64,000 bases of DNA from a virus, in the IMG/VR virus record IMGVR_UViG_3300037424_000898, positions 1-64,000 of that record. One strand, 5' to 3'. The notes beneath the pieces were generated by a model, which saw only the letters and a list, made by a program, of their open reading frames with translations, was not told the DNA's origin and did not search any database. The position numbers and the translations under genes were made by a program. Position 1 is the stretch's first letter. Every line of letters begins with the position of its first letter. Shown here in pieces: positions 615 through 30,105 of the stretch.

Positions 615-1385
615 ATGGCGCTGACATCAACCACTCTCGTCGCGGCCATCGACTCGGAACAGACCGAGTTCGCGGTCACGTCGGGTACTGGATTCGCCGT
701 TGGCTACGTCTTGCGAGTCAACGACGAGTTCATGGCCATCAAGGCCGTCTCGACCGCATGGATCCGGGTCGAGCGCGGTCAGGAAGGCACGCTGGCGCGG
801 GATCACGGGATTCTGTCGCTGGCGGTTGTCGGGTTGCCCGAGGATTGGGTGCCCGAAACCCCGAGTCACTTCTACACGTATGGCGCGGCCGGCGCCATCA
901 CGCCGGAGCGGGGGCTTCACACGCTCAAGGCGGCGAGCGCGGCCGCCATGACCTTGGCGGCGCCAACGGCCGACCAGGAAGGCGTCCGGCTACTCATCGT
1001 CGCAGGAGCGGCCTACGCCTACACCCTCGCGTTGGACAGCGGGGCGTTCAACGGTGGGACCGATACCGCCATGCTGCAGTTCGGCGGAGCCATCGGGGAT
1101 TGCATTGAACTGGTGGCCATCGGCGGGTCGTGGTGCATTGTCCAGAGCAAGAACCAGACGGCCGTCAGCCTGTCGGCGTCGGTGTCCCCGTCCAAGAGCC
1201 CGTCGGTAAGCCCGTCGGTCTCCGCGTCGGCTTCCGCGTCGGTGTCGCCGAGCACGAGCGGCTCGGCCACGCCGAGCGTCTCGCCGTCGAAGTCTGCGTC
1301 GGTGTCGCCGTCGGTGAGCCAGTCGGCTTCGCCGAGTGTGTCACCGTCCGTGTCGCCGTCGGTGTCCCCGTCGGCGTCGGCGTAG
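615..1385 (+). CDS. Post-capsid structural protein, paralog B, with a C-terminal (Ser-X)n tail
   Basis: GGGGAGGA lies upstream of the ATG. The first ~180 aa are paralogous to 48-602. The last ~72 aa are [16 protein letters not shown]... with Ser at every second residue. Confidence 0.8.
   Translation: MALTSTTLVAAIDSEQTEFAVTSGTGFAVGYVLRVNDEFMAIKAVSTAWIRVERGQEGTLARDHGILSLAVVGLPEDWVPETPSHFYTYGAAGAITPERGLHTLKAASAAAMTLAAPTADQEGVRLLIVAGAAYAYTLALDSGAFNGGTDTAMLQFGGAIGDCIELVAIGGSWCIVQSKNQTAVSLSASVSPSKSPSVSPSVSASASASVSPSTSGSATPSVSPSKSASVSPSVSQSASPSVSPSVSPSVSPSASA
1167..1382 (+). repeat. Coding low-complexity tract, strictly alternating (Ser-X)n
   Basis: [72 protein letters not shown]. Confidence 0.9.
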
Positions 1386-1422
1386 GTCGGGTCGGTTCGC
1401 TCAGCACGTCTGGAGGCGGTTC

Positions 1423-2298
1423 GTGCTTTCAGTGCTCATCCCGGCCCGTAACGAGCGGTATCTGCGGGCAACCGTCGAAGACGTGCTCCGTCAGGCCGTC
1501 GGGGATCTCGAAGTGATCGCGGTCCTCGACGGTCCCCCTTTCGATGTCTCACTGCCGGAGGACTCGCGTGTGCGGGTGATCCGGCATGACCAGCCTCACG
1601 GGATGCGCCCCTCGATCAACGAGGCGGCAGCGGTGTCGTCGGGGGATCTGCTGCTCAAATGTGACGCGCATTGCGCGTTCGCGCCTGGCTTCGACCGGGT
1701 CTTGACAGACTCCTACGAGGATGACTCGTGGGTCATGGTCCCCCGACGCTACTCGCTCGACCCGGTGACGTGGACGATTGACCATCGGGATCCGGCGCGC
1801 GACTACCACTTCATCGCATGGCCGTTTTCGGGTGAGTTCAAAGGGACGTTGGAGAGCGGGCCGGCGGTGCTGCGCGGGCGGGTCTGGCATCAACGGGCCA
1901 TCGACCGGAAGGATCTCCTTGTCGATGACGAGATGAGTTCGCAGGGCTCGTGTTGGGTGATGTCGCGGACGCAGTGGGAGCGGATTGGCCCGCTGGACAC
2001 GGCGCACTACGGACCGTTCATTCAGGAGTTCCAGGAGGTCGGTTTCAAGACGTGGCTGGGCGGCGGTCGAGTCGTCATCAATAAGCGGACCTGGTACGCC
2101 CACTGGTACAAGCGGAACGGGCAGGGCTACGCACTCTCGCCGCGGCAGTCGAAGGCGGGGATCGCGTATTCGTTCGACCACTGGTGGAACGACCGGTGGG
2201 AGCAGCGGAGACACGATTTCGCGTGGTTGGTCGAGAAGTTCTGGCCGTTGCCCGGTTGGCCGGAGAACTGGCGCGAATCGCGGAAGGCGGAATGTTAG
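1423..2298 (+). CDS. GT-A fold glycosyltransferase (GT2 / polypeptide-GalNAc-transferase-like), paralog 1
   Basis: GTG start 6 nt after GGAGG. Motifs: N-terminal SVLIPARNE...VIAVLDG, a DxH motif (LLKCDAHCAF) and WLGGGRVVINKRTWYAHWYK. Paralogous to 3219-4106 and 7332-8354. Confidence 0.75.
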   Translation: MLSVLIPARNERYLRATVEDVLRQAVGDLEVIAVLDGPPFDVSLPEDSRVRVIRHDQPHGMRPSINEAAAVSSGDLLLKCDAHCAFAPGFDRVLTDSYEDDSWVMVPRRYSLDPVTWTIDHRDPARDYHFIAWPFSGEFKGTLESGPAVLRGRVWHQRAIDRKDLLVDDEMSSQGSCWVMSRTQWERIGPLDTAHYGPFIQEFQEVGFKTWLGGGRVVINKRTWYAHWYKRNGQGYALSPRQSKAGIAYSFDHWWNDRWEQRRHDFAWLVEKFWPLPGWPENWRESRKAEC

Positions 2299-2517
2299 AT
2301 GGCCACGCTGCACACGAAATGTGACGAGTGTTGGGATCCGTTGCCTTGCAGTTGTCCTGCCCAACACGAGCGCGATAGGACAAAGCACATGACTGACTAT
2401 AGCGTCGCAATCAGCGATCTGAGTGACGCCGTAAAGGCGCTAGCGGACGCTGTGAAGGCGTTGAGCCAACGAGTGAAACGAATAGAGGCGGCATCAAAAC
2501 CAGGCCCTCGGCCCTGA
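2299..2517 (+). CDS. Small Cys-motif protein (HTKC-x2-CWDPLPC-x-C) with a helical tail, paralog 1
   Basis: The ATG directly follows the TAG of the GT gene. The N-terminal motif is shared with 6474-6662. Confidence 0.6.
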   Translation: MATLHTKCDECWDPLPCSCPAQHERDRTKHMTDYSVAISDLSDAVKALADAVKALSQRVKRIEAASKPGPRP

Positions 2518-2536
2518 CGCCGAGCAGTATCGCGTC

Positions 2537-2746
2537 ATGTCATCCGAGGAAACGGTTCTGATGGACTTCGCTGAGGCGATGCGCGCGGTCATGGACGGGA
2601 TGAGCGTGCGGCGACGGGCGTGGGACGACGCGCACTGCATCATTCGGCTGCGGTTGGGACTCATCGAGATCATGCTCAATCACACGTGGCGACCCTGGCT
2701 GATTTCGGACGTGGACGTAAAGGCGAAGGACTGGGAACTCGAATGA
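2537..2746 (+). CDS. DUF2829-like small protein (the family that contains the anti-Thoeris protein Tad2)
   Basis: 69 aa. DFAEAMRAVMDGMSVRRRAW near the N-terminus and WRPWLISDVDVKAKDWEL at the C-terminus match the remembered DUF2829 pattern (FGEAlxAlkxGkkvxRxxW ... DllaxDWxv). Confidence 0.5.
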   Translation: MSSEETVLMDFAEAMRAVMDGMSVRRRAWDDAHCIIRLRLGLIEIMLNHTWRPWLISDVDVKAKDWELE

Positions 2747-3222
2747 AGCGCCGAGGATGGTTGCCTCCAATTACGTTTGAACTTCGGCCGAGCAGTCGAG
2801 GACGCCTTTACTTTGCGGTCCATATCGCTGACACCGTTGGGTCAATGCGAGCAACGATGCGGCGGTGCGCCGGTTGGGTTCATCCCCAGCAAGTCGCCGC
2901 AGTCGATGGTGTAACGCAGTACGACAAACGCGCCCGCAAGACTGGGCTGTGCGGCATCATCTACATTCCCCGGACTCATCTTGGCGCGGGGCTTGTCGCG
3001 CATGAACTGTCTCATGCGGCGTTTCGGTATTGCGAACGACGGCGCCTGCGAATTGAGCACTGGAAGTGGGGTCCTCCGGCTTTTGGTCTATCCGTCAAGG
3101 CGAAGAAGGTCAGGGTGGACAGCTCCGAGGAAGTGTTCTGTGATGTCGTGGAGCACCTAAGCCGGCAGTTCTGGAGCGAGATTTTCGCAAGAGGCTTGGA
3201 CAAACCGAAAGGCAGAACGTGA
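2743..3222 (+). CDS. Putative zinc metallopeptidase-like protein (HExxH)
   Basis: ATGA overlap with the upstream gene. 159 aa containing HELSHAAF. No further family assignment is possible by eye. Confidence 0.45.
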   Translation: MKRRGWLPPITFELRPSSRGRLYFAVHIADTVGSMRATMRRCAGWVHPQQVAAVDGVTQYDKRARKTGLCGIIYIPRTHLGAGLVAHELSHAAFRYCERRRLRIEHWKWGPPAFGLSVKAKKVRVDSSEEVFCDVVEHLSRQFWSEIFARGLDKPKGRT

Positions 3223-4106
3223 GCAAGGTCAGCATCTTGATCCCGTCGCGCGAAGAGCCGTTCCTGCAGCGGACCATCGACGATCTGCTGTTGCAGCGGG
3301 ATGGCGACGTGGAGATCATCGCACTGCTCGATGGCTGGTGGCCGAATCCGCCGCTCAAAGACGATCCACACGTCAAGCAGATCCATTGGACGGTGCCGCA
3401 AGGACTTCGGTCTTGCCTGAATGCCGGCGCGCGGGTAGCCACGGGCGACTACCTGCTCAAGATCGACGCCCATTGCGCCGTGTCGGAAGGCTACGACGTG
3501 GAACTGGCGAAGGTCTGCGGGGACGATTCGATTGTCGTGCCGGCGAAGTACTCCCTGAACGCCGACACGTGGACGCGCTACCGGGAGCCCTGGCAGTACT
3601 TCTACCTCACCTTCCCGTGGGATCCGACGCTGAACCATCCCGGCTTGCACGACAAAGCCTGCGGGCCCGATGTGAACGCGGCGCGAGCGCACATCCAGCC
3701 GATTGACGACATCCTGAGCTATCAGGGCAGCGCGTGGTTCCTGACGAAGCAGCACTTCGAGCGCATCGGGCCGATGGACCCGGCGCGGTACTACGTCGCG
3801 CAGGAACCCCAGGAACTCGGGCTGGCGACGTGGCTGAATGGCGGGCGAGTCGTCATCCACAAGGGCGTGTGGTACGCGCATCTCTGGAAGGGGCGAGACC
3901 ACAAGCGGGGCTTCCGGCTGATCAAGCCGCGCTGGGTGCGAGCGCTAAGGGCGAGCGCTGAGCACTGGATGGCCCAGTCGGGGTTCCCGGCGCTGGTCGA
4001 GAAGTTCTGGGACGTGTTGCACGAGGCGCCGGTCGGGCCGTGGCCAGACGACTGGCAGGATCCGAAGTATCGGGTAGCGATTGACGCGAGGAAGGCAGCG
4101 GTATGA
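3219..4106 (+). CDS. GT-A fold glycosyltransferase (GT2 / ppGalNAc-T-like), paralog 2
   Basis: GTGA overlap start. Motifs: SILIPSREE...IIALLDGWWPNPPL, LLKIDAHCAV (DxH) and WLNGGRVVIHKGVWYAHLWK. Confidence 0.75.
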   Translation: MSKVSILIPSREEPFLQRTIDDLLLQRDGDVEIIALLDGWWPNPPLKDDPHVKQIHWTVPQGLRSCLNAGARVATGDYLLKIDAHCAVSEGYDVELAKVCGDDSIVVPAKYSLNADTWTRYREPWQYFYLTFPWDPTLNHPGLHDKACGPDVNAARAHIQPIDDILSYQGSAWFLTKQHFERIGPMDPARYYVAQEPQELGLATWLNGGRVVIHKGVWYAHLWKGRDHKRGFRLIKPRWVRALRASAEHWMAQSGFPALVEKFWDVLHEAPVGPWPDDWQDPKYRVAIDARKAAV

Positions 4107-4348
4107 AACATCAGCATCAGTGCGTGTGCGAGCACAACAACATCAAGTTGTGCAAGGTGTGCAAGGTTCCGTACTGCGTGGATTGTGGCAAGGAGTGGCA
4201 GGAGAAGGTGTTGTACAACACGTACTACTCTACCTGCCAGTATCCAAACATCTACCAGCACCAAACCACAGGGGGCCGTTCGGACGTAGTGGCTCTCATG
4301 ACAAATGCGGATGACTGTGGGCACAGGCATGAATCAGACCGCCCTTGA
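4103..4348 (+). CDS. Cys-rich small protein (zinc-finger-like)
   Basis: ATGA overlap start. Contains QCVCEHNNIKLCKVCKVPYCVDCGKEW. The segment is visibly less GC-rich than its neighbours. Confidence 0.5.
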   Translation: MKHQHQCVCEHNNIKLCKVCKVPYCVDCGKEWQEKVLYNTYYSTCQYPNIYQHQTTGGRSDVVALMTNADDCGHRHESDRP

Positions 4349-4979
4349 CGCCATCTGCGCTCGGTACAAGGTGGCCGACCTTGCGGGGTCGTTGCCACTC
4401 GAACTGGCCGGCGGGGTGCGGGCTGACCTGCCGCACCTGTTCCGTGACCTCGGCTACACCGTGGGCGCGGAGATTGGCGTCTGGCAGGGAGAGTTCTCCG
4501 AAGCACTCTGTCAGGGCATCCCCGACCTGCACCTGTTCGCGGTCGATCCGTGGGTGCGGTACAAGGACTATCACGACTACGAACTCCGGGCGAGCCTGGA
4601 GGCGGCCCGCGAGATGGCGATGGCCCGGCTCGCGGCCTTCCGCCACGTCACCATCATTCCAAAGTTCTCGCTGGAGGCCGCTGAGGACATCCCCGACAAC
4701 TCACTCGATTTCGTCTACATCGACGCGAATCACGGCTTCGAATACGTCGTGGCGGACCTCGCCGCGTGGACGAAGAAGGTCAAGCCGGGCGGCATCATCA
4801 GCGGGCATGACTACGTGAACATCCGGCGGTCGATTCCCGGCTTCCGGGTCGTCGAGGCGGTGCAGGGCTGGACCCGGGCGAACGACATCAATCCCTGGTT
4901 CATTCTGGGCCGCACGAAGGTGCATCCCGACCGGGAACCGCGCGACAAAGAGCGCAGCTATCTGTGGGTGAAGCCGTGA
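4329..4979 (+). CDS. Class I SAM-dependent methyltransferase (Methyltransf_24 / sugar O-methyltransferase-like), paralog 1
   Basis: Motifs: GAEIGVWQGEFSE (SAM-binding loop), DFVYIDANH, GGIISGHDY. Paralogous to 5836-6471. The start is uncertain; in-frame ATGs occur at 4305, 4311 and 4329. Confidence 0.7.
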   Translation: MNQTALDAICARYKVADLAGSLPLELAGGVRADLPHLFRDLGYTVGAEIGVWQGEFSEALCQGIPDLHLFAVDPWVRYKDYHDYELRASLEAAREMAMARLAAFRHVTIIPKFSLEAAEDIPDNSLDFVYIDANHGFEYVVADLAAWTKKVKPGGIISGHDYVNIRRSIPGFRVVEAVQGWTRANDINPWFILGRTKVHPDREPRDKERSYLWVKP

Positions 4980-5839
4980 CGGTCCTCGTCACGGGCGGCA
5001 CCGGGTATCTCGGACAAGTGTTCGTCCGGTACGCCCTCGACCACGGGGCTGAGCAGGTGGTCGTGTTCTCGCGCAGCGAAGAGACGCAGCGCCGGATGCG
5101 GATGGACATGTCGGATTCCCGGCTGCACTTCTGGCTGGGGGATGTGCGCGACAACGGGGCCTTGGCCCGGGCGATGACGGTGCATCCGGTCGAGGTCATT
5201 GTCCATCTGGCCGCGCTGAAGCACGTCACGAACTGCGAGCAGTTTCCCTTGGAAGCGGTTCAAACGAACGTCGTCGGGACGGCGAACGTGATTGACGTGG
5301 CGACCCGCTACGGCGCGCGTGTGCTGGCGATGTCCAGCGACAAGGCCGTGCAGAGTACGTGCGTCTACGGGGCCACCAAGGCCCTCTTGGAGCGGATTAT
5401 CGTGGCGGCCGGCTTCTCGGCTGTCCGGGCGGGCAATCTGATTGGGTCGACAGGCAGTGTGCTGCCGGTCTGGCGAGAACAGGTGGCCAAAGGCGAGCCG
5501 ATTACCGTCACGGACCCGACGATGACGCGGTTCTACATGACCGTGGACGAGGCGGCGGCGTTCCTCTGGCGGGCGGTCCATGTGATGCGGGGCGGCGAGG
5601 TGTTCGTGCCGAAGCTGGGCGCCTGCCGGCTGGGCGATCTGGCCGATGCCATCAGTCCGCATCAGCGGGTCATCGGGGCACGACCGGGCGAGCGAACGCA
5701 CGAACTGCTCATCCTGGAGGACGAACCGGTGCGCGACGACGGGTGGGCCTACGTGGTGACGGCTGGCGAACGGCCCTTCGGCCGCGTGCTCGTCTCGAAT
5801 GCGGTCTACGCACTTGAGGCAGCCGAGGTGACGGCATGA
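4976..5839 (+). CDS. Extended-SDR nucleotide-sugar 4,6-dehydratase (CapD / PseB / FlaA1-like, Polysacc_synt_2)
   Basis: Motifs: VLVTGGTGYLG, LGDVRD, VHLAALKHV, MSSDKAV, YGATKAL (YxxxK), GSTGSVLPVW, ITVTDPTMTRFYMTVDEAA, GGEVFVPKL. GTGA overlap start; an alternative GTG is at 4964. Confidence 0.85.
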   Translation: MTVLVTGGTGYLGQVFVRYALDHGAEQVVVFSRSEETQRRMRMDMSDSRLHFWLGDVRDNGALARAMTVHPVEVIVHLAALKHVTNCEQFPLEAVQTNVVGTANVIDVATRYGARVLAMSSDKAVQSTCVYGATKALLERIIVAAGFSAVRAGNLIGSTGSVLPVWREQVAKGEPITVTDPTMTRFYMTVDEAAAFLWRAVHVMRGGEVFVPKLGACRLGDLADAISPHQRVIGARPGERTHELLILEDEPVRDDGWAYVVTAGERPFGRVLVSNAVYALEAAEVTA

Positions 5840-6471
5840 CGGGGGCCTGTCGCGCCACCTTGGGCATCGTCAGCCAGCACTCGCCGTTGCCGGTGAGTTT
5901 CACGGCACCGATGCCGATGGTGCTCTCGGACTTCGGGCGCTACCAGTTAGCGATGCTCTTTGCGGAGTGCGGCTTCACGCGCGGCGCGGAGATCGGGGTC
6001 GCGGCGGGGAAGTACGCCGAACAGCTCTGTCACGCCAATCCGGGCCTGCACCTGGCGTGCGTGGACGCGTGGGAGACGTATCCGGGTTACGCCGACCACA
6101 CGGCCGTGCGGCTAGTCGAGGCGCGACAGGAGGCTCGAAGACGCCTGGCGTCCTACGACTGCCGGTTGGTCAAGGCCATGAGCGTGGAGGCGGCGAAGCA
6201 GTTCCGGGATGGGTCGCTGGACTTCGTCTACCTGGACGCCAATCACCGGTTTGAATGCGTTGTGGCGGATCTGGCGGCTTGGAGTCCGAAGGTGCGAACG
6301 GGCGGGATTGTGGCAGGGCATGACTACCACGTCTTTCCGCAGCATCCGCACTGGCGGGTCATCGAAGCCGTTCAGTCCTGGGTGCAGGCGTACGACGTGA
6401 GCCCGTGGTTCCTGCTGGACTACGGGCACCGGGGCACGCGGATTCATAGCTACTTCTGGGTGAAGGAGTAA
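5836..6471 (+). CDS. Class I SAM-dependent methyltransferase (Methyltransf_24-like), paralog 2
   Basis: ATGA overlap start. Motifs: GAEIGVAAGKYAE, DFVYLDANH, GGIVAGHDY. Confidence 0.7.
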   Translation: MTGACRATLGIVSQHSPLPVSFTAPMPMVLSDFGRYQLAMLFAECGFTRGAEIGVAAGKYAEQLCHANPGLHLACVDAWETYPGYADHTAVRLVEARQEARRRLASYDCRLVKAMSVEAAKQFRDGSLDFVYLDANHRFECVVADLAAWSPKVRTGGIVAGHDYHVFPQHPHWRVIEAVQSWVQAYDVSPWFLLDYGHRGTRIHSYFWVKE

Positions 6472-6473
6472 CG

Positions 6474-6662
6474 ATGGGGATGATTCACACGAAATGTCCG
6501 CAATGTTGGGATCCGCTTCCATGCGGATGTTCTGTTCAAACGGAACGCGACGAGACCGCGGCCGCTAACGCTAAATACCAGCGTGACCGAACGGCCAAAG
6601 AACTCTTGGAAGAACAGAAAGAAACGAACCGCCTTTTGCGCCAGATAGCAGAACGGAAATGA
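6474..6662 (+). CDS. Small Cys-motif protein (HTKC-x2-CWDPLPC-x-C), paralog 2
   Basis: MGMIHTKCPQCWDPLPCGCSVQTERDE... matches the N-terminus of 2299-2517. The tail is helical and charged. Confidence 0.6.
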   Translation: MGMIHTKCPQCWDPLPCGCSVQTERDETAAANAKYQRDRTAKELLEEQKETNRLLRQIAERK

Positions 6663-7339
6663 ACATCGCGGTCATGTCGGCCAACCTCGGGAACGCGGAA
6701 GCGCCGGTCCAGCACGTCGCCCAGGTCGTGCCGCCCTGGACGACCGTGTCGATGCACCTGTTCACGGACGAGACCTTCCCGCCGCGCCGGGCCGCAATGA
6801 CGCCCAGGCTGCAGAGCAAGCTCCCGAAGCTGTTCGGCTGGGAGATGGTGCCGGACTCTGACGTCTATGTGTGGATTGACGCGGCGTTCCGGCTGGCCCG
6901 CGAAGACTCCATCATCTGGCTGCTTCGACAACTGGCCGATCACGACATCGTCTTCTTCGAGCACCCGGAGCGACAAACTATCGAGGAAGAAGCCGCGTTT
7001 CTTCGGGACAACCTCGCCACGAGTCAGCGGCTTCAGGCGCGGTATCAGGGGGAACTGCTGGATGAGCAGATGGAGGCCATTCGGGCGACCTTCTCCTACG
7101 ACGAGCACCTGTACGCCAGCGGGATCTTCGCCTACCGGCCGATCCATCGTGTCAAGCAGGCGATGAAGGAATGGTGGTTCCACATCTCGCGCTACCACCT
7201 GAATGACCAGTTGTCGTTGCCCTACGCACTGGCGAGCGCGGACTGTGACGTGGCGACGATTGACGCACAGATCGGATACGGCTACCACGAGCCCCACTTT
7301 GAGTTCACGCGGACCAGCCGGAGGGTGAAGCGTGCCTGA
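6659..7339 (+). CDS. DUF616 / TOD1-MUCI70-like putative glycosyltransferase
   Basis: ATGA overlap start. Motifs LQSKLPKLFGWEMVPDSDVYVWIDAAFRL, FFEHPERQTIEEEA and NDQLSLPYAL match the remembered DUF616 pattern. Confidence 0.5.
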   Translation: MNIAVMSANLGNAEAPVQHVAQVVPPWTTVSMHLFTDETFPPRRAAMTPRLQSKLPKLFGWEMVPDSDVYVWIDAAFRLAREDSIIWLLRQLADHDIVFFEHPERQTIEEEAAFLRDNLATSQRLQARYQGELLDEQMEAIRATFSYDEHLYASGIFAYRPIHRVKQAMKEWWFHISRYHLNDQLSLPYALASADCDVATIDAQIGYGYHEPHFEFTRTSRRVKRA

Positions 7340-8354
7340 CCTCTCCGTGCTCATCGCATCGCGGAATGAGGTGTTCCTCAAGAACACCGTAGAGGACGTG
7401 TTGACGCACGCGGAGGCTGATACCGACGTCATCGCCGTCTGCGACGGGGCTTGGCCGACTCCGCCGCTCGTGGACCATCCGAAGGTCACGCTTGTGCATC
7501 ACGCGAGCATCGGGCAGCGGGCGGCGGTGAACGAGGCGGCCCGGCTCTCGACGGCGACCTACGTGATGAAGCTGGACGCGCACTGTGCGCTCGATCAGGG
7601 CTTCGACCGGAAGCTGATCGAGCCCTACGAACGGGGCGAATTGGCGCGCGAGGACACCACGATTCCCCGACTCTACAACCTGCACGCCTTCGACTGGCAG
7701 TGCCGGGCGTGTGGGGACCGGATCTACCAGGGAGCCAAGCCGTCAGCCTGCGGGAAGTGCAAGAGTCCGGAGGGCTTTGAGCGCGTCATGGTGTGGAAAC
7801 CGCGCTGGCATCGGAAAACGGACTTCAACCGGTTCGACGCCAACCTCCAATACCAGTACTGGCAGGGCGTGGACAAGCGGCCGGCGTCCCAGGGCGAGCT
7901 CGCCGACATGATGACGGCGCTCGGGGCGTGCTTCTTCATGCGTCGGGATCGGTTCTGGGAGTTGGGCGGGATGGACGAGGAACACGGTTCATGGGGCCAG
8001 TTCGGGGTCGAGGTGGCGCTGAAGTCGTGGCTGTCGGGCGGGCGGCATGTTGTGAACAAGCGGACGTGGTACAGCCACATGTTCCGCACGCACGGCGGGC
8101 CGGAGTGGGGCTTCCCCTACCCGATGTCCAATTCGCAGGTCGAGACGGCCCGAAAGCACTCGCGGGCCATGTGGTACCAGAACGCCTGGCCGCGACAGGT
8201 CCGGCCGCTCGACTGGCTAGTGGAGAGATTCGAGCCGGTCCCGGGCTGGCACCAGCCCGCATCGAAGGACGACCCACCGCAGCGCGAGGCGATTCTGGCG
8301 ATGGTGCAGCAGGCGGCGCTGATCTTCAGCCCGCGGCGCGAGGTGGCGGCATGA
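7332..8354 (+). CDS. GT-A fold glycosyltransferase (GT2 / ppGalNAc-T-like), paralog 3, with an inserted Cys4 zinc ribbon
   Basis: Motifs: SVLIASRNE...VIAVCDGAWPTPPL, VMKLDAHCAL (DxH), WGQFGVEVALKSWLSGGRHVVNKRTWYSHMFR. The insert is CRACGDRIYQGAKPSACGKC. Confidence 0.75.
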   Translation: MPDLSVLIASRNEVFLKNTVEDVLTHAEADTDVIAVCDGAWPTPPLVDHPKVTLVHHASIGQRAAVNEAARLSTATYVMKLDAHCALDQGFDRKLIEPYERGELAREDTTIPRLYNLHAFDWQCRACGDRIYQGAKPSACGKCKSPEGFERVMVWKPRWHRKTDFNRFDANLQYQYWQGVDKRPASQGELADMMTALGACFFMRRDRFWELGGMDEEHGSWGQFGVEVALKSWLSGGRHVVNKRTWYSHMFRTHGGPEWGFPYPMSNSQVETARKHSRAMWYQNAWPRQVRPLDWLVERFEPVPGWHQPASKDDPPQREAILAMVQQAALIFSPRREVAA

Positions 8355-9142
8355 CGAAGGGCATCGTCTACTACTCCGACTGCCGCGGCGACCCGGCCAT
8401 CCTCGAGACATGCTGGGCTCAACTACTCCGTGCCACGGCGGGCCTGTCGCTCGTGTCCGTGACGCTGCAGCCTGTCCCGGGCCTTGGGCTGAACATCGTG
8501 CCCTACCAGTCGGATGACACGGTGATCTGGGTCGATTCGAGTGAGCCGCCCGCCTCGCCGGAGCCATTCGCCCGGGAGTGGACACCGCTTGAGCGCGGCC
8601 GGCTGACGATGTTCCGCCAGATCCTCGCGGGTCTCGAAGCGCTGGACACCGACGTCGCGTTTCTGGCGGAGCATGACGTGCTGTACCCACCAGAGCACTT
8701 CGACTTCACGCCGCCGTCCGCCGACCGCTATTACTACGACGTTCACTGGTATCGGCTCGACGCGCACACCGGGCGGGCCGTGAGCTATCTGGCCAACCAG
8801 GTATCTGGCCTCTGCGCTGACCGGGAACTGCTGATTCAGCACTACCGGGCGCGCGTGGCGCGGACGGAACAGGCTGGCTACGACCACGGCACGGGCTACG
8901 AACCGGGGAACCATCCGCCGCCCCGTGGCATCGACCACGTGCCGCAGGAACGGTTCCGGGCGGCGCAGCCCTATATCGACATCCGCCACGGCTGCAACAT
9001 CACGGCCTCACGCTGGTCGCAGGACGGATTCCGCGACAAGCGGACGTGTACGGAGTGGCGCGAGGTGGACGAGATTCCCGGCTGGGGTCCGACGAAGGGC
9101 CGCTTTCCCGCGTTTCTGGCCGACGTGAGGGCACGCACATGA
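8351..9142 (+). CDS. Putative glycosyltransferase-like protein (unclassified)
   Basis: ATGA overlap start. Contains IVYYSDCRGDP...VSVTLQP...RGRLTMFRQILAGLEALDTDVAFLAEHDVLYPPEHF. The call rests on cluster context and an acidic EHD motif only. Confidence 0.4.
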   Translation: MTKGIVYYSDCRGDPAILETCWAQLLRATAGLSLVSVTLQPVPGLGLNIVPYQSDDTVIWVDSSEPPASPEPFAREWTPLERGRLTMFRQILAGLEALDTDVAFLAEHDVLYPPEHFDFTPPSADRYYYDVHWYRLDAHTGRAVSYLANQVSGLCADRELLIQHYRARVARTEQAGYDHGTGYEPGNHPPPRGIDHVPQERFRAAQPYIDIRHGCNITASRWSQDGFRDKRTCTEWREVDEIPGWGPTKGRFPAFLADVRART

Positions 9143-11279: not shown

Positions 11280-13037
11280 GTGGGCCAGACAGCCGCAACA
11301 GCAACGGTCATTGCCAGCTTGCCCACGACGATTGTGGAGGACATCGCCGGTCTGGCCGGGGATCAACAGGTCTGGTACACCTACACGACCAATGGCACGG
11401 AATGCGCCTTCGGCGTCTACATCTGGTCTGAGCCGACGTGGGACTACCGCAAGGAAATTGTGATCTACTCCGGCACGCCGGAGGATCTGACGACCGTGTT
11501 TACGGTGTCTCCCACCGTAGGCACGTTGCAGGACAACTTCCCGATTTGCGTTCCCGTTGTCGGCGTGACGACCTACTACGTCCGAGTCCGCAACACGACG
11601 TTCGTGCAGCCGGATCCGGATGCGCCGCCGCTGACGGTGATGTTCACGCCTGCCCCGGTGGAGTCTGTCCCGCTGGGGTCGTTGCTCATTCCAGACGACA
11701 GTGAGGGGCATCCGCTCGTCGCGCTGGACGCCACCGATGGCCATGTGCGGCGCGTGGTGCATCCGTTTCCGCATGGGGAGACGGGCGCAACCTCGCCGGT
11801 CACGGGGCGTATTCTGGTCCGATCCGACGATCTGACGCGCATCGCCCTGTACGACTCTGACGTGTCATTGGTTACGGAGATTTCCGGTTTCCATGCCTCG
11901 GTCGAGAGCGACTGGTTTCCGCAGTTCTGCTGCTCAGAGGCGGGCACGTTCTATGTCGTGGACGAGGACGTGTCGGGCACGGGCGCATTGTGGCTGTGGG
12001 TCATTGCCGATGATGGTACTGTCATCAGCACAACCGACTTTCCGCTCACAGCCTATGTTGCGCTAGGCGGGATCGGCGTCTCTCCCGATGAGACGATCCT
12101 CTACTACGTCCAGAGCAACGGGGTCTTTCGGTACGATCTGGCGACCGGGACTAGTCTGGGTCTCTTCGTGGCGAACGCGGGCGGATACAACCCGCTGATG
12201 AATGGCGACTTCGCAGTCTATGCCGACGGATCCTTCCTGCTGTCGTGCAAGAAAACAATCGGTGGGGCCGCGTATGCGGTCAAACGATATGGCGCTGACG
12301 GGACGTTGCTGACGGCATATGTCATGACGGACGATCCGGCGGAGTGGTACATCCATCATATCGCCCGCGGCGTGACGGACAGCACGTTCTGGGTGTGGCA
12401 ACAGGCGATCGGGGTATTCGGGTATTACAACGGGTACGACAAATTTACTGAGTTCAACATCAGTGACGGATCGGTGGCGAGAGCGCTACCCACAGTGGTG
12501 GCGTTCAGCGAGGGAATTGCGATAATTGCGGGCGATGTGGACGCGCCCCGGTTCGCACACTCAAAGTCCTGTCCACTGCTCATTGCCCGCGTTGCAATAG
12601 CGTCGGCGTCCCCCTCCTCATCGCGTTCGGCCAGCGCGTCCGTGTCTCCGTCGGCGTCCTCGTCGCCCTCGCCATCCCCGAGCATGGCCGAGGAGCAGAC
12701 ATACCTGATTCGGCGGCTCCGGCAGGCGCCACACCTGTCCGACGAGCACCGCTGGCAGTTCCATCAACGCTTTCAGTTGGATCTGGAAACAGGCGTCGGG
12801 CTGTCGAGTGGACAGGGATCGGATCCCCAGATCATGTTGTGCTGGAGCGACGACCACGGGCACACCTGGAGTCACGAGCATTGGACGAGCGCGGGGAAGA
12901 TCGGCGAGTTCAAGAGGCGTGCGCTGTGGTACCGGCTGGGGCGAACGCGGGATCGGATCTATCGGGTGGTGGTGAGCGATCCGGTGAAGTGGGCGCTGGT
13001 TGATGCCTACTTGCAACTGGAATCGGGACGGCGGTAA
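11280..13037 (+). CDS. Tail protein: beta-propeller-like domain, Ser-X linker, then gp10-type C-terminal module
   Basis: GTG start after GGAGGG, in the same frame as the previous ORF. The C-terminus YLIRRLRQAPHL..LDLETGVGL..QIMLCWSDDHGHTWSHEHW..FKRRALWYRLGRTRDRIYRVVVSDPVKW matches the gp10-family C-terminus. Confidence 0.75.
   Translation: MGQTAATATVIASLPTTIVEDIAGLAGDQQVWYTYTTNGTECAFGVYIWSEPTWDYRKEIVIYSGTPEDLTTVFTVSPTVGTLQDNFPICVPVVGVTTYYVRVRNTTFVQPDPDAPPLTVMFTPAPVESVPLGSLLIPDDSEGHPLVALDATDGHVRRVVHPFPHGETGATSPVTGRILVRSDDLTRIALYDSDVSLVTEISGFHASVESDWFPQFCCSEAGTFYVVDEDVSGTGALWLWVIADDGTVISTTDFPLTAYVALGGIGVSPDETILYYVQSNGVFRYDLATGTSLGLFVANAGGYNPLMNGDFAVYADGSFLLSCKKTIGGAAYAVKRYGADGTLLTAYVMTDDPAEWYIHHIARGVTDSTFWVWQQAIGVFGYYNGYDKFTEFNISDGSVARALPTVVAFSEGIAIIAGDVDAPRFAHSKSCPLLIARVAIASASPSSSRSASASVSPSASSSPSPSPSMAEEQTYLIRRLRQAPHLSDEHRWQFHQRFQLDLETGVGLSSGQGSDPQIMLCWSDDHGHTWSHEHWTSAGKIGEFKRRALWYRLGRTRDRIYRVVVSDPVKWALVDAYLQLESGRR
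12603..12683 (+). repeat. Coding Ser-rich linker
   Basis: [27 protein letters not shown] lies immediately before the gp10-type C-module. Confidence 0.85.
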
Positions 13038-20239: not shown

Positions 20240-20240
20240 C

Positions 20241-21170
20241 GTGATCCGAGAAGCGACGGCGAAAGATGCAGAACAGATCGTGGCGCTCGTCATGCGCTTC
20301 GGAGCCGAGCGTGGCCATCGAGACGAGATGACAAGTCGGCCTGAATTGCTAATGTCAGTGCTGCGAAGAACCCTTGGGTCGCCAGATGGAACGGTGTTTG
20401 TGTCGGATCGGGACGGTCAGGTAATCGGAGTTATTGCGCTGTGTCTCATTCGTCACCCTCTCTCCTACGAACTGTCGGCCACGGAACTCGTGTGGTTTGT
20501 TGCGCCAGAACATCGGGGGCATGGGCTGCGGTTGTTGCGTGCGGCCGAGGAATGGGCGATTCGGCAGGGCGCAACTCGGCTGTCGCTCGTCGCGCCAACT
20601 ACTCAGACCGAACGCATTTATGGTCGCTTGGGTTATCGGGCGATGGAGCCCATATTCATTCGCGAATTGCCATTGCCATCGGTACGCTTTAGGCCAATGA
20701 CCCTAGACGACAGTGCGCTTGTGTGGGCGTGGTTGTGGCAACAGCCTCAGTGGAACGTTGACGATGGTAGTCCTAAAACGCTAGAGGAGTTTCGGGTTGG
20801 ATTGGAGCAGCGATTCGCGGCAAACGAATCAGCGCGCATTGTCCTGTGGCCCGATAACGAACCATGCGGTGTGGTCGGATTTAGTGATATGGGGCACGGT
20901 GTCGGAATGTTTCGCGGTGTGTGTTTTGACGAAGCGGTGCATGGACGAGGGATTGCTCGCGCAGCGATAGCGCAGATGCTTTCCAGTTGGTTCGACGGGG
21001 GATACAGGAAGGTCGTTGCGGCGTTCTTTGCTCATAACCAACGAATTGCGCGCATCTTCCGCAGGCTCGGAGCGGTCGGCGAAGGATTGCTTGTAGCCCA
21101 AGTGAAACAGCAAGGGCATCCGATCGACATGCAGTTGGTGGCATTTTTCAAGCCAGAAAGCAAGGGGTAA
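20241..21170 (+). CDS. Tandem double-GNAT N-acetyltransferase
   Basis: Two GNAT-like halves are present (...VWFVAPEHRGHGLRLLRAAEEWAIRQGATRLSL... and ...VCFDEAVHGRGIARAAIAQMLSSWFDGGYRKVVAAFFAHNQRIARIFRRLG...). The gene is visibly less GC-rich than the flanking late genes. Confidence 0.7.
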   Translation: MIREATAKDAEQIVALVMRFGAERGHRDEMTSRPELLMSVLRRTLGSPDGTVFVSDRDGQVIGVIALCLIRHPLSYELSATELVWFVAPEHRGHGLRLLRAAEEWAIRQGATRLSLVAPTTQTERIYGRLGYRAMEPIFIRELPLPSVRFRPMTLDDSALVWAWLWQQPQWNVDDGSPKTLEEFRVGLEQRFAANESARIVLWPDNEPCGVVGFSDMGHGVGMFRGVCFDEAVHGRGIARAAIAQMLSSWFDGGYRKVVAAFFAHNQRIARIFRRLGAVGEGLLVAQVKQQGHPIDMQLVAFFKPESKG

Positions 21171-27400: not shown

Positions 27401-27403
27401 GGG

Positions 27404-28048
27404 TCACAGGATAGCACGTCTTGTGCGGGCGGGAGTAGTCAGGGCACGCTCGACGGCCCAGCCCGTCAGGATGCGACGCTTGAAGGCTTCCGGTGTCACG
27501 ACCGAACGGCGACCCCACTCCGCTATCGAGTGACGCTCTCCAGCGTACTCAATCAAGTGGTTGTTCCGCTTGTTGTTGGCTTGAACAACATAGTCGGCCC
27601 AACGGCAGTTCTCTGGCGAGTACGGGCCATTGTTGTCGATACGTTCGAGCGAGCGGCCTTCTGGACATGGCCCCATGTCGCGCAGGAACGCCACGAGATC
27701 ATGCCGCCACGAATCGCAGACGACGATCCCGCGGCCGCCATAACGGGGGTAGACCTTGCTATGCGAGTTGTAACACCGGGTTCTCATGGCGTGCCACGCA
27801 CGATGTTCGCGGGTGCCCGAGAGTCCGTGTGTCGTGTGGCGTTGGCGGGCGGATTCATGGTGAAGACAGCTACAACTACGGGTGTTGCCGTTCTTCAGGT
27901 TCTTGGCAATCACTATCGGCCTGCGCCCGCAATCGCACAAGCAATGCCATGCAGGGCGAGTGGCGCGAGTGCGCGGTTGTTGCAGGCGTCGTTCAGCGGT
28001 CAATCGTCCGAACCGCTGGCCGGTGAGGTCTTCTGAGAGTGGACGCAT
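27404..28048 (-). CDS. Free-standing HNH-like (degenerate) endonuclease family protein, copy 1
   Basis: Motifs: [82 protein letters not shown]. Paralogous to 30726-31364. Confidence 0.65.
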
Positions 28049-28113
28049 GAATCTATCATATCACGCGGGAAACGTGCAGTAAAGGCCGCCGAACGTAAAT
28101 GGAGTGACCGCCA

Positions 28114-30105
28114 ATGGCTTTGCCAACTTCCGCTTTGTCGCCATGCCCGAAGCTGCATTTTCTCGATGCAGACGGTGAATCGGCTGTCGGTTTTTTGCTC
28201 TGGACCTACACGACAGGGACCAGCACGCCCGAAGCCACGTACACCGACTATGGCCTGACCGCTGCCAACACGAATCCGATTGTGCTCGATTCTCGCGGAG
28301 AATGCGTAATTTACTGGGACGGGTCCGCGTTGAAGTTCGTGCTGGAGACCGCGCCAGAGGAAGGTCAGACACACGGCACAATCATCTGGACCCGTGATCC
28401 GATCCTCGACGCCGGGATGCTCATGGCCGGCGAGATGGACGCGGCCAGCGTCACGTTCACCCAAGACGGGACGAGTGCCGTCGCTACCACGGTGGCCGCG
28501 AAGCTCGAGACGGTGCTCTCCGCCCTGGACTTCGACGTGCCGAGCGATGGGCTGACCGCCTGCAACACGGCGCTCCAAGCCGCCGTGAACGAGGCGCACG
28601 CCCGGGGCGGGGGAACCGTGGTGCTGGAGCCAGGGACGTACCTCTTCAGTGGCACGCCCGTCACCCTGTATTCGGACACGACGATTCAGGGCACGAGAGG
28701 CGCGACCATCCTCGACGGTGCCGCCTCGACCGTGCTGGCCTGCTTCATCAACGCAGCCGTGGGGAGTCTTGACAGTACGTATATGCGGCCGGTTGGCGAT
28801 GGATGGAAGACGGCGAACGACCGCAACGAGCGGATTGCGCTGCGCGGGTTGAGCTTTACCGGCGTGGCCCGCCGCTGTTTCGTCTTCGCGGGCGTGGACC
28901 GCCTCACCATCGAAGACTGCACCTTCGAGTCCGACAGTGGGGCGGGAGATGGGACGGCGGGCCTGCAGATGATTGGGGATCTCTGTGGGGCCATGTCGGA
29001 TGTTCGGTTCCTGCACAACACGGCCATCGACTGCAAGGCGGGGCTGTACATCCGCCCGGGCGCCATCGGGACAGCCGGGGTCCATGCGTCGGCCGAGGCC
29101 GTGACAGACGTGCTCATTCAGGGCAACCTGTTCGACCATCCGACGGCGGGCGACTGCGACAGCCAGATCCTTGCCCAAACCTTCTGGGGCCTGCTCGCCC
29201 GGGTGACGATCCTCGACAACATCGTCCGAACGAACACGAATGTGGATCCGCACACGCTTCTGCTCGCGGGCATCGACGCGAGCGCGGACGAGGCGAACGC
29301 CACGTTCGAGGGGCTGGTGATTCGCGGGAACGTCGTCAAGTCGCTGAACACGACCGACGACGTGACGGGCATTCAGACGGTCAATGCGGGGGACGCCGGC
29401 GACCTGTCCGACGTCATCATTGCCGGCAACGTCGTGGATGGATGCCTCACGGCCGGTATCGACCCGTCCGTAGCAGGACAGACGTGGAACAACGTGGTGA
29501 ACGGCGTCATGTGCCAGCGGGACGTCGTGCAGATGACGTATGGGACCACGGCGCCGACGACGAGCACGTGGGCCGTCGGTGCCATCTGCTGGAACACGAC
29601 GCCGGCAGATAGCGGGTGGGTCGGGTGGGTCTGCAAGACGGCCGGCACGCCGGGGTCATGGCGGGGATTCGGCGTGCTCGAAGCCGCATCGGGCAGCGTC
29701 AGTCCATCAGCATCCACGAGTGCGAGCCCGAGTCTATCGGCCTCGTCCACGGCAAGCGTTTCGCCGAGCAAGTCGGCAAGCGTGTCGCCGAGCGTATCTG
29801 AGTCGGTCAGTGCCAGCGTCTCGCCGAGTAAGTCCGAGAGCGCGTCTCCGAGCGTGTCCGCGTCGATGAGTGCGAGTGTGTCGCCCAGCAAGTCCGAAAG
29901 CGCTTCGCCAAGTCTCAGCGAAAGCGCGAGCGCCAGTGTGTCGCCGAGCGTGAGCGCAAGTGTCTCACCAAGTAAGTCCGAAAGCGCGTCACCAAGCATC
30001 AGTGAAAGCGCGAGCGAGAGCGTGTCTCCGTCAGTCAGCGAGAGCGCCTCGCCTTCGGTCAGCGAGAGCATGAGTCCAAGCGTCTCCCCGAGCGCTTCAG
30101 CGTAA
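28114..30105 (+). CDS. Tailspike / depolymerase with a right-handed beta-helix (pectate-lyase-3-like) and a C-terminal (Ser-X)n tail
   Basis: The N-terminal fibre-anchor motif is [51 protein letters not shown]. The motif [28 protein letters not shown] is typical of Pectate_lyase_3 tailspikes. Confidence 0.8.
29689..30102 (+). repeat. Coding (Ser-X)n tract, about 138 aa, at the C-terminus of the tailspike
   Basis: [71 protein letters not shown]... Confidence 0.9.

Follow-up and report, generated by a model that had tools for sequence, protein, structure and literature searches.

What are long tracts with serine at every second residue doing in the virion proteins of a phage? The question arises from a 64-kb stretch of DNA (positions 1 to 64,000 of IMG/VR record IMGVR_UViG_3300037424_000898; the window), which represents the genome of a P22-like podovirus that has not been cultivated. 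A first-pass annotation of the window had put forward six such tracts as candidate acceptors of neighboring glycosyltransferases. Sequence, predicted structure and co-occurrence across phages indicate that the tracts are most likely arrays of acceptor sites dedicated to cytoplasmic, ppGalNAc-T-like polypeptide O-glycosyltransferases that the phage encodes. The six tracts lie in five + strand virion genes, listed here with a tail-less paralog of the first.

48..602, + strand: coat-proximal paralog A, 184 aa, the all-beta domain common with paralog B, no Ser-X tail
615..1385, + strand: coat-proximal paralog B, a 184-aa all-beta domain, then a 72-residue C-terminal (S-X)36 tail (1167-1382)
11280..13037, + strand: tail protein, 440-aa N-domain, 27-28-residue (S-X) linker (12603-12683), Hc3/gp10 C-terminal anchor domain
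13038..15029, + strand: tail/fibre protein, 400-aa N-domain, 140-residue (S/T-X)70 linker (14241-14660), 123-aa C-domain
15040..16848, + strand: tail/fibre protein, 200-aa N-domain, two tracts (197-residue (S-X)99 at 15640-16230, an 18-aa spacer and 65 residues at 16285-16479), Hc3-type C-terminal anchor
28114..30105, + strand: tailspike, pectate-lyase-like beta helix, 138-residue C-terminal (S/T-X)69 tail (29689-30102)

Translation of these coordinates and a six-frame regular-expression scan recovered the tracts at 1167-1382, 12603-12683(6), 14241-14660, 15640-16230(3), 16285-16479(82) and 29689-30102. The alternation reported by the first-pass annotation is exact, with Ser or Thr at 321/321 periodic positions (317 Ser, 4 Thr). 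Four seeming breaks are Thr substitutions that keep the register, and the longest unbroken tract has 99 successive S-X units. Ser accounts for only 5.6% of residues in the remaining genes, which together with the perfect periodicity excludes a chance origin. The X residues (P 85, A 66, V 66, E 34, then L, S, Q, G, R, I, K and T) agree with those listed earlier. The scan of the whole 64 kb found no further (S-X) run of at least six units in any of the six frames, and the claim that the non-structural genes have no tracts therefore holds. The tract-bearing ORFs have a high GC3 (0.72-0.85). Long spurious ORFs cross the tracts, as the annotation had said, at 14030-14653 (-, 207 aa), 13996-14787 (+, 263 aa), 29373-30071 (-, 232 aa) and 16116-16481 (-, 121 aa). 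The stored gene calls of a related public contig, L005, are on the wrong strand over such tracts.

Translation, domain searches and relatives also bore out the described placement, with tails on the coat-proximal protein and the tailspike and linkers in the tail proteins. Paralog A is 58% identical to the N-domain of paralog B (P0006), and the pair of tail-less A and tailed B recurs in relatives L004 and L005 and in short contigs. The AF2 model of paralog B (pLDDT 93) has weak fold matches both to tailspike N-domains and to capsid spikes. The anchor of 11280..13037 matches phrog_578 positions 363-473. The tailspike matches Pfam PF12708, PF13229 and PHROG tailspike families.

The cassette that adjoins the tracts holds three paralogous GT-A glycosyltransferases. 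It is listed below together with a downstream acetyltransferase.

1423..2298, + strand: ppGalNAc-T-like GT-A, short form, copy 1 (Pfam GT2, 3.7e-15; best PDB match GALNT4)
3219..4106, + strand: ppGalNAc-T-like GT-A, short form, copy 2 (best PDB match GALNT4, 6.7e-8)
4305..4979, + strand: Methyltransf_24 SAM methyltransferase, copy 1 (Pfam 1.3e-16)
4964..5839, + strand: PseB/FnlA-like UDP-GlcNAc 4,6-dehydratase (Pfam Polysacc_synt_2, 3.7e-73)
5836..6471, + strand: Methyltransf_24 SAM methyltransferase, copy 2 (Pfam)
6659..7339, + strand: TOD1/MUCI70-like or nucleotide-diphospho-sugar transferase-like protein (weak Pfam matches, 2.2e-4 and 0.014)
7332..8354, + strand: ppGalNAc-T-like glycosyltransferase, long-form catalytic domain with a Cys4 insertion (best PDB matches PGANT9 and GALNT10)
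8351..9142, + strand: separate ORF matching the long-form C-terminal domain
20241..21170, + strand: tandem GNAT acetyltransferase (Pfam 9.4e-22)

Profile and fold searches confirmed the ppGalNAc-T-like label that the annotation had given the nearby glycosyltransferases. The top 15 matches of the family profile among PDB sequences are only ppGalNAc-Ts (best E 2.7e-15, covering positions 3-273 of 309). The AF2 model of copy 2 has a pLDDT of 95, and its top 50 Foldseek matches in the PDB are all ppGalNAc-Ts (TMq 0.60-0.70). The DxH motif and third His of copy 2 align with those of GALNT4, and D83-x-H85, H221 and an E...WLxGG motif are invariant in the family. Copy 1 belongs to profile A1; its start was adopted from the public gene call on L138. 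The long-form catalytic domain can be aligned with its L004 and L005 counterparts, and its identity to the long forms of many loci is 55-63%. The ORF that follows it (GC3 of at least 0.8) begins at an ATG (8351) overlapping the upstream stop and is 46% identical to residues 330-599 of the L004 long form (E 7e-77); it has no match in Pfam or the PDB.

Homologues of Methyltransf_24 are found in 70/80 viral loci selected for the glycosyltransferase and 1/66 controls, and by these sequence comparisons the methyltransferase is a core partner of the glycosyltransferase module. The 6659..7339 protein, with homologues in 16/80 and 0/66, is a candidate elongating glycosyltransferase. The dehydratase matches NCBIfam PseB at 7.4e-70, under the equivalog cut-off, and is probably the source of a 6-deoxy-HexNAc-type donor. 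Its homologues are absent from the 80 other glycosyltransferase loci, and among the loci examined this accessory gene occurs in this phage only. The tandem GNAT might N-acetylate sugars or proteins; in other loci it shows no co-occurrence with the glycosyltransferase family, and its membership in the system is uncertain.

The decisive evidence that the tracts are acceptor arrays is comparative. IMG/VR contains 419 relatives of the glycosyltransferase, and the best 80 loci (GC 33-69%) were taken with this family as the sole criterion. Tracts lie within 10 kb of the glycosyltransferase in 68/80, and in 27/28 of those with full 10-kb flanks. The control set of 66 loci (820 kb) from related P22-like phages, found through the paralog A/B family, has no glycosyltransferase, and its sole tract-like match is a run of 16 residues on the opposite (minus) strand (Fisher p = 1.3e-27). 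The earlier proposal of the tracts as candidate acceptors of these enzymes is thus supported. The 68 tract-bearing loci contain 181 tracts (28,710 aa in total), 178/181 on the glycosyltransferase strand, and 14,355/14,355 periodic positions are Ser or Thr. The composition of X is constant over this GC range (P 34%, A 20%, V 12%, E 10%; D, N, G, K and R rare). Next to these tracts lie domains typical of fibres or receptor binding (Laminin_G_3, beta helix, CBM96, tail fibre J and Hc3). The reverse search with a tract-only query returned eight loci, and the glycosyltransferase is present (E 1e-99 to 1e-123) in all three whose tracts are strictly S-[PAVIE] (L006, L009 and L012; GC 36-45%). Close relatives L004 and L005 have the gene order coat, A, B with tail, glycosyltransferase/methyltransferase cassette. 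There is no tract within the available DNA of 12/80 glycosyltransferase loci and 24/44 MAG loci; most of these are short, but shortness does not explain L041 and four full-length MAG loci. Glycosyltransferase, methyltransferase and tracts co-occur near-obligately across unrelated phages. A mobile cassette bringing the two elements together for unrelated reasons could account for part of this co-occurrence, a reading disfavored by the presence of tracts in different, non-homologous host proteins.

The tracts could instead be unmodified flexible or extended spacers, much like the polyserine or Pro/Thr linkers found in secreted glycoside hydrolases, with the cassette acting on the host envelope (serotype conversion) or on phage DNA. 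They do sit at linker and tail positions, and phage glycosyltransferases that modify DNA or O-antigen are known (PMC12619734). Relative L001, which is without this glycosyltransferase family, carries at the corresponding positions short Pro/Glu linkers and a homologue lacking the tail; its homologue of the 13038..15029 N-domain joins the anchor through a short PTPEPEPIPSG linker. L001 also has a different glycosyltransferase-like gene and a methyltransferase yet no tracts, which indicates that a glycosyltransferase-like gene located here in the genome does not necessarily have tracts as its target. A spacer role nevertheless leaves unexplained both the Ser or Thr at every second residue, here and elsewhere, and the near-confinement of tracts to phages with one glycosyltransferase family (68/80 versus 1/66). 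The closest relatives of these enzymes act on peptides, neither on lipids nor on DNA, and O-antigen modification would need membrane segments, of which none were found in the glycosyltransferases. We consider this explanation unlikely.

It is very improbable that the tract serines are modified by host enzymes or by other chemistry (phosphorylation, O-acetylation or methylation) and not by the ppGalNAc-T-like enzymes. Methyltransf_24 co-occurs as tightly as the glycosyltransferase, and the genome has the tandem GNAT. Against this, no kinase was seen among the ORFs scanned, and a methyltransferase is found without tracts in relatives L001 and L146. The same glycosyltransferase family is always phage-borne despite hosts that must differ widely, given the GC range of 33% to 69%.

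The periodic Ser pattern is selected at the protein level. The tracts use all six Ser codons, TCN and AGY intermixed, at frequencies like those of the genome, and the longest exact DNA repeats (17-18 bp) are no longer than shuffled synonymous codons yield; the pattern is therefore not a slippage product, and the predicted proneness to slippage was not upheld. Compared with a 92%-identical homologue, the paralog B tail has changes at 0/36 Ser and 8/36 X positions, and the folded domain at 15/184 positions. Tract length does vary between related genomes, as the check proposed earlier asked: tails occur in only the 6 nearest of 103 paralog B homologues and span 28-72 residues. That the tracts are neutral, functionless by-products of simple-repeat expansion in a GC-rich genome draws on this variation and on the degenerate 12-84-bp periodicities that TRF gives within them, but the short repeats, the mixed codons, the fixed Ser beside drifting X and an identical protein pattern across GC 33-69% make it extremely improbable and refute it as far as sequence analysis can.

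In the proposed mechanism, the structural operon co-expresses three groups of proteins late in infection. These are the tract-bearing virion proteins (coat-proximal protein B, three tail/fibre proteins and the tailspike), the glycosyltransferases (two short forms and the long form, split here into catalytic and C-terminal ORFs) and the accessory enzymes (two Methyltransf_24, the TOD1-like transferase and the PseB/FnlA-like UDP-HexNAc dehydratase). One glycosyltransferase would move a HexNAc-type sugar from a UDP-sugar to the Ser hydroxyls. The i, i+2 spacing would line up every Ser side chain along a single face of the extended chain, and Pro, Ala, Val and Glu at X would keep it unfolded and soluble. 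Paralogous glycosyltransferases may fill in or elongate the glycan, and the methyltransferases may cap the sugars. The putative outcome is a stiff, hydrophilic, protease-resistant bottle-brush stalk. Linker tracts would hold receptor-binding domains off the Hc3-type anchor on the tail hub, and C-terminal tails would give the head-proximal protein and the tailspike a fringe of glycans. Ser glycosylation and the mucin-like brush, like the donor sugar, the division of labor among the enzymes and the benefit to the virion, are inferred. Dozens of unrelated uncultivated phages share the tract/glycosyltransferase pairing, and the searched literature contained no description of it; it is apparently an undescribed mode of virion sugar-coating.

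Mycobacteriophage virion glycosylation (Freeman et al. 2023, Cell Host Microbe), as presented in PMC12619734 and PMC12582341, likewise involves phage-encoded glycosyltransferases near structural genes and glycans on C-terminal parts of virion proteins. The acceptors in those accounts are the C-termini of major capsid and tail tube subunits, whereas the tracts here are strict Ser-X tails and linkers on accessory, fibre and tailspike proteins. The glycosyltransferase family also differs, and tblastn of three of the present enzymes gave no match in 50,697 GenBank phage genomes.

By profile and fold, the closest PDB relatives are the animal and apicomplexan polypeptide GalNAc-transferases (CAZy GT27), which act on mucin tandem repeats and in animals initiate mucin glycosylation. 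Shared with them are the GT-A domain and, within it, the DxH motif, the third His ligand and a motif resembling that of Gal/GalNAc-T. Common to both settings are several paralogous transferases encoded together and long, Pro-rich, unfolded Ser/Thr arrays, here putative acceptors. The phage enzymes are only 15-21% identical to GT27 and are without its ricin-type lectin domain, type II membrane anchor and secretory pathway. They would work in the bacterial cytoplasm, and they are associated with Methyltransf_24 and with the C-terminal domain described above. Their acceptors would be strictly alternating Ser-X with hardly any Thr, whereas mucin repeats are irregular Ser/Thr/Pro.

Long dipeptide Ser repeats are also a feature of the Gram-positive serine-rich repeat glycoproteins (Fap1, GspB, PsrP and SraP, with GtfA/GtfB) and of the staphylococcal Ser-Asp repeat proteins glycosylated by SdgA/SdgB. 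In their very long repeats Ser alternates with an X that is A, V, E or T. Dedicated co-encoded enzymes O-glycosylate them in the cytoplasm, and the repeats serve as extended stalks on which a binding domain is displayed. These systems rely on GT-B (GT4) initiation, an accessory Sec system and LPXTG anchoring, none of which was found in the Pfam scan of the phage ORFs. In the phage, X is mostly Pro and the carriers are virion proteins. Secreted carbohydrate-active enzymes have polyserine and Pro/Thr linkers, Ser-rich spacers of low complexity between domains that are often O-glycosylated, but these linkers are homopolymeric or irregular, with no strict period-2 and no dedicated co-encoded glycosyltransferase family. 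The phage tracts are Ser-rich spacers as well, but strictly period-2 and tied to a co-encoded glycosyltransferase family.

Translation and a six-frame scan of the window reproduced the six (Ser-X)n tracts at the coordinates reported in the first-pass annotation. No further tract is present in the 64 kb, which bears out its claim that the tracts are confined to virion-type genes. Five proteins carry them:

615-1385, coat-proximal protein (paralog B); tract 1167-1382 forms the tail
11280-13037, tail/fiber protein; tract 12603-12683 is a linker
13038-15029, tail/fiber protein; tract 14241-14660 is a linker
15040-16848, tail/fiber protein; tracts 15640-16230 and 16285-16479 are linkers
28114-30105, beta-helix tailspike; tract 29689-30102 forms the tail

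The 321 periodic positions of the six tracts are occupied by 317 Ser and 4 Thr residues. The four seeming interruptions are Thr substitutions that keep the register, and the longest tract has 99 S-X units in succession. The X residues are P (85), A (66), V (66) and E (34), then L, S, Q, G, R, I, K and T, with a single occurrence of Asp. Pro at two successive X positions is rare (7 observed versus 22 expected), and for 82% of the periodic Ser/Thr residues a Pro lies one or three residues away, on either side. The tract proteins terminate in ...SPSASA or in phage anchor domains. A fold search with the paralog B domain returned only weak matches (TM ≤0.42) to tailspike N-domains and capsid spikes. 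Long ORFs in alternative frames, and others on the minus strand, overlap the tracts, as the sequence had first suggested, and ORFs of this type misled the stored gene calls of a related public contig, L005. Its calls at 10402-12636 lie on the minus strand over + strand (S-X)n tracts (10460-11224) and are most likely spurious mirror ORFs.

TCG, AGC, TCC, TCT, AGT and TCA are all in use at the periodic Ser positions, in proportions that resemble the rest of the genome. TRF detected only degenerate periodicities in the tracts (59-93% matches). The longest exact repeat is 17 bp inside a tract and 18 bp between tracts, values no different from those that the same peptides give when random synonymous codons are substituted. 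Comparison of paralog B with its 92%-identical homologue P0001 identified changes at 0/36 Ser and 8/36 X positions of the 72-residue tail, and at 15/184 positions of the folded domain. The codon usage, the short exact repeats and the Ser-invariant substitution pattern therefore indicate that Ser is strongly constrained, that X is loosely constrained and that the DNA is a poor substrate for slippage. As read from these sequences, selection on the tract pattern acts at the protein level and not at the level of the DNA repeat. The earlier proposal that the tracts are prone to slippage is not sustained by exact repeats no longer than random synonymous coding yields; tail lengths still vary among paralog B relatives (28, 32, 38, 42, 64 and 72 residues). 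A slippage origin of the tracts was rejected on the same TRF and exact-repeat data.

Repeats of other kinds occur elsewhere in the window. An array at 41345-42060 (+) has no convincing ORF and contains 20 copies of GCGAGCCA with a strict 36-38-nt period, the sole + strand occurrences of this motif in the 64 kb. Between them, offset by 18 nt, lie approximately 20 copies of GAG[AT]GC[AG]CCA, and the spacers that separate the motifs vary. The array has no Rfam match; it may be a set of binding sites for a protein, iteron- or centromere-like, or an RNA element in repeated copies. A 48-bp unit is present as two tandem copies (87% identity) at 49095-49190 in a lower-GC region.

The window has a GC content of ~64%, its + strand carries nearly all genes, and searches of it found no tRNA genes and no Rfam families. 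Four predicted proteins identify the carrier as a P22-like podovirus:

58166-60460, P22-type portal (PF16510, E = 1.6e-163)
62642-63886, P22-type coat (PF11651, E = 6.5e-37)
~9140-9843, gp4-like adaptor (phrog_637/PF24175)
10101-11279, N-terminal 390 residues of a gp10/Hc3-like hub (phrog_578, E = 2e-80)

The nearest GenBank phage portal is only ~40% identical, and megablast of 25 kb of the window against GenBank phages gave zero matches. These comparisons place the genome far from all deposited ones. The gp10-like protein had zero matches as a query against genome contigs. The hub gene encodes the N-terminal part only (phrog_578 positions 8-364). Its C-terminal ~110-residue domain (phrog_578 363-473) is displaced to the C-termini of two fiber proteins (12684-13037 and 16480-16848), an arrangement of split hub and relocated anchor that is also found in the relatives L001 and L017. 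The phrog_578 C-terminal domain looks like a modular anchor for the attachment of various fibers.

A 7.7 kb cassette (1423-9142) separates the coat-proximal genes from the adaptor gene. With the coat gene (62642-63886) on one side and the adaptor (from ~9140) on the other, the phage glycosyltransferases (GTs) lie beside structural genes. The cassette encodes:

1423-2298, short GT-A glycosyltransferase
3219-4106, short GT-A glycosyltransferase
4305-4979, Methyltransf_24 methyltransferase
4964-5839, PseB/FnlA-like UDP-HexNAc 4,6-dehydratase
5836-6471, Methyltransf_24 methyltransferase
6659-7339, TOD1/MUCI70-like transferase
7332-8354, third GT, with a Cys4 insertion
8351-9142, ORF equivalent to the C-terminal domain of the relatives' long-form GT (46% identity, E = 7e-77)

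Most other loci encode the long-form GT as one protein of 550-640 aa; in the window it is divided into two ORFs that overlap in ATGA. ORF 8351-9142 has no match in Pfam and none in the PDB. The TOD1-like protein was considered as the missing C-domain of the long-form GT and rejected; that domain is ORF 8351-9142.

A ppGalNAc-T-like GT set adjoining the tracts had been proposed in the first-pass annotation, and both profile and fold comparisons point to the ppGalNAc-Ts. The best PDB match of each of the three GTs singly is a polypeptide GalNAc-transferase. A profile of the family built from six sequences (A1) was compared with the PDB, and the first 15 matches were all GALNTs (E = 2.7e-15 to 5.5e-9), the best covering positions 3-273 of 309. 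The top 50 Foldseek matches in the PDB to an AF2 model (pLDDT 95) were all ppGalNAc-Ts (TMq 0.60-0.70). The GT-A catalytic domain is thus nearer to the ppGalNAc-Ts than to other GT-A families in both searches. The DxH Mn2+ motif and third His ligand of mouse GALNT1 are Asp209/His211/His344 (PMC4202792). In the phage family, K81-x-D83-A84-H85-C86 and H221 are invariant in the 6 and in 35 sequences, and the DxH motif and H221 align with DCHC and VGHVF of GALNT4. The region of the Gal/GalNAc-T motif (WGGENxE...WxCGG) aligns QEPQELGLATWLNGG with WGGENLELSFRVWQCGG; the motif is degenerate, E196/E199, W205 and G208-G209 are conserved within it, and the E...WLxGG region is invariant across the aligned GTs. 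The ricin-type lectin domain is absent from the short forms, which end at ~295 aa and match only Glycos_transf_2 in Pfam. In the GTs the GT-A fold sets in at the very N-terminus with its first beta strand, (M)SKVSILIPSR, and no hydrophobic N-terminal segment that could be a type II membrane anchor is apparent. The enzymes are labeled ppGalNAc-T-like and not GT27 members because the lectin domain and the membrane anchor are missing. The evidence from sequence and model agrees at every level and is consistent with three ppGalNAc-T-like GTs. Six homologous proteins of 900-1350 residues (P0187, P0189, P0199, P0200, P0207 and P0212) have two to four stretches matching this GT, which suggests tandem GT fusions.

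A 198-residue tract alone was used as a query against IMG/VR by peptide back-translation. It matched 358 stretches, and tblastn confirmed 8/358, a low rate for which low-complexity filtering is the suspected cause. Strict S-[PAVIE] tracts of up to 582 residues were present in three of the eight confirmed loci (L006, L009 and L012; GC 36-45%), and each of the three also encodes this GT family a few kb upstream (E = 1e-99 to 1e-123 versus the profile). In the other five (L007, L008, L010, L011 and L013) the S/T-X repeats are looser, with much Q, L, K and R, and the GT is missing; these repeats were set aside as different in kind.

The GT profile search of IMG/VR returned 419 relatives. Tracts, defined as (S/T-X) runs of at least 8 units located ≤10 kb from the GT, were detected in 68 of the 80 best-scoring loci (GC 33-69%) and in 27 of the 28 loci with complete 10-kb flanks. 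The 68 tract-positive loci contain 181 tracts, 178 of them on the GT strand, with a median length of 130 aa and a maximum of 764 aa. The periodic positions are 14,310 S and 45 T and nothing else, and X is P (34%), A (20%), V (12%), E (10%), I (7.5%) and L (5%). The control was 66 loci (820 kb) of related phages found through the family of paralog B and its tail-less neighbor, paralog A (48-602). The GT was found in 0/66 control loci, and their sole tract-like match was one 16-residue run on the minus strand (Fisher p = 1.3e-27 for tract frequency in GT loci versus control). The GT and the (S-X)n tracts therefore show near-obligate co-occurrence, which lends support of an indirect kind only to the ppGalNAc-T reaction, the transfer of GalNAc from UDP-GalNAc to Ser/Thr of a polypeptide, as a candidate activity of these GTs. 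Most GT loci have one short and one long GT, and a Methyltransf_24 homologue was present in 70/80 GT loci versus 1/66 controls. Domains flanking the tracts in other loci are Laminin_G_3, beta helix, CBM96, NHL, tail fiber J, minor tail protein and Hc3, predicted domains that are typical of fibers and receptor-binding proteins.

The close relatives L004 and L005 share the gene order coat, paralog A, paralog B with tail, and GT/methyltransferase cassette. The more distant L001 does not have this GT family, its paralog B homologue is tail-less, and short Pro/Glu linkers occupy the positions of the window's tracts. L004 also has an 18-residue run, SLSPSPSMSPSPSCSPSP (2206-2259); the gene that holds it encodes 180 aa, precedes the portal gene and is not one of the late structural genes. 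The tract-less L001 has a different GT-like gene (7006-7701) with a WLDDD motif, judged by eye, and a Methyltransf_24 homologue (7698-8294), both between coat and adaptor. Modification genes may generally tend to gather in the coat-adaptor interval.

Tblastn of the three window GTs against 50,697 GenBank phage genomes gave zero matches; there is therefore no cultured phage model. A search of 185,579 species, one genome each, gave 44 GT matches, all in MAGs. These are mostly Patescibacteria/CPR lineages, and the others include Anaerolineae, Planctomycetota and gammaproteobacterial bins. Tracts of up to 1040 residues are downstream on the same strand in 20/44 of the MAG loci. Some of the contigs come from phages and were placed in MAGs by binning (L099 and L084 are one contig), and others, of 135-568 kb, could be prophages or cellular systems. 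Tracts of 750-1040 residues lie downstream of the same GT family in L133 (12308-15427), L097 (16199-19018) and L119 (13355-15604), which binning assigned to MAGs of Saccharibacteria, Thermoplasmatales and Niyogibacteria, respectively; their carriers may be phages or prophages, or the tracts may belong to cellular surface proteins. An exhaustive HMMER search of 1.84 billion proteins (E ≤1e-10) yielded 527 clusters at 50% identity, and some of the matched proteins bear 2-4 GT domains.

The best explanation of these sequence and model data is that the (S-X)n tracts are putative acceptors of a dedicated cytoplasmic O-glycosylation system. Plain linkers with GTs that act elsewhere, or tracts that receive another modification, account far less well for the periodicity, the codon data and the co-occurrence. 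Neutral repeat expansion is likewise a much poorer fit to all three. The mechanism proposed for O-glycosylated tracts draws on the analogy with mucins and with adhesins that bear serine-rich repeats. With Ser at i and i+2, every hydroxyl would point to the same side of an extended chain, folding would be prevented by Pro, Ala, Val and Glu in the X positions, and dense glycosylation would turn the chain into a stiff rod or fringe that resists proteases. Where the tracts are linkers, these rods would hold binding domains away from the Hc3-type anchor; where they are tails, they would form a coat on the head-proximal protein and on the tailspike. On balance, we lean toward a widespread, undescribed "prokaryotic mucin-type" O-glycosylation module composed of soluble short and long ppGalNAc-T-like GTs, Methyltransf_24 and, as acceptors, strict (Ser-X)n arrays that reach ~1000 residues. 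In a diversity of uncultivated phages it would serve to build glycan-coated stalks and fringes on fibers, tailspikes and head-proximal proteins, and it would also occur in Patescibacteria/CPR and other MAG-binned contigs.

If this is true, the enzymes would be the first prokaryotic-virus counterparts of the GT27 family and would bear on the origin of mucin-type glycosylation; their evolutionary relation to the eukaryotic ppGalNAc-Ts may be raised as a question. The reach is at least 419 IMG/VR loci and the 527 protein clusters, and the sequence signature is simple, (S-X)n plus KxDAHC/WLxGG. The acceptor grammar is clear and open to testing in E. coli. The module may account for a class of giant low-complexity ORFs for which gene callers pick the wrong strand, and may offer glyco-engineers a soluble enzyme set from the bacterial cytoplasm for making mucin-like polymers. 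It is relevant to phage stability, host range and immune/defense evasion where hosts resist culture.

Gram-positive bacteria have glycosylated Ser-X repeat adhesins, and eukaryotes have mucin-type glycosylation. To our knowledge, glycosylation of phage particles is essentially one known case, the mycobacteriophages, where it affects antibody recognition. The phage GTs share the GT-A domain with DxH and third His with the ppGalNAc-Ts (CAZy GT27), but lack the C-terminal ricin-type lectin domain and, judging from their N-termini, the type II anchor of these enzymes of the Golgi lumen. The long Ser-X dipeptide repeat region of the serine-rich repeat protein/GtfA-GtfB system is also a feature of the window proteins, whereas its GT-B (GT4) initiator, SecA2/SecY2 and LPXTG anchor were not found in the scanned ORFs; a Pfam scan of 29 ORFs (the major + strand ORFs of 48-30457, portal and coat) detected transferases of GT-A/GT2 type exclusively. 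Mycobacteriophages encode virion glycosylation (Freeman 2023, as cited in PMC12619734 and PMC12582341), with phage GTs beside structural genes as in the window. The acceptors there are C-terminal ends, those of the major capsid protein and of the tail tube protein, whereas the six-frame scan found no tract in the window coat protein, and a tail tube is not expected because the carrier is a podovirus. Homologous GTs of the mycobacteriophage type were not encountered, the three window GTs being unmatched by tblastn in the GenBank phage records. A second phage-glycosylation system is suggested, mechanistically different from and far more widespread than that of the mycobacteriophages. A literature search on phage or prokaryotic GT27-like enzymes, serine-repeat virion proteins and other phage virion glycosylation found no relevant description; its coverage was incomplete, and an earlier description is possible. 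The general ideas of phage virion glycosylation, Ser-X adhesins and mucin-type glycosylation are already known, and what appears to be new is their combination, a ppGalNAc-T-like family in phages and CPR-type MAGs that is coupled to a strict period-2 Ser grammar.
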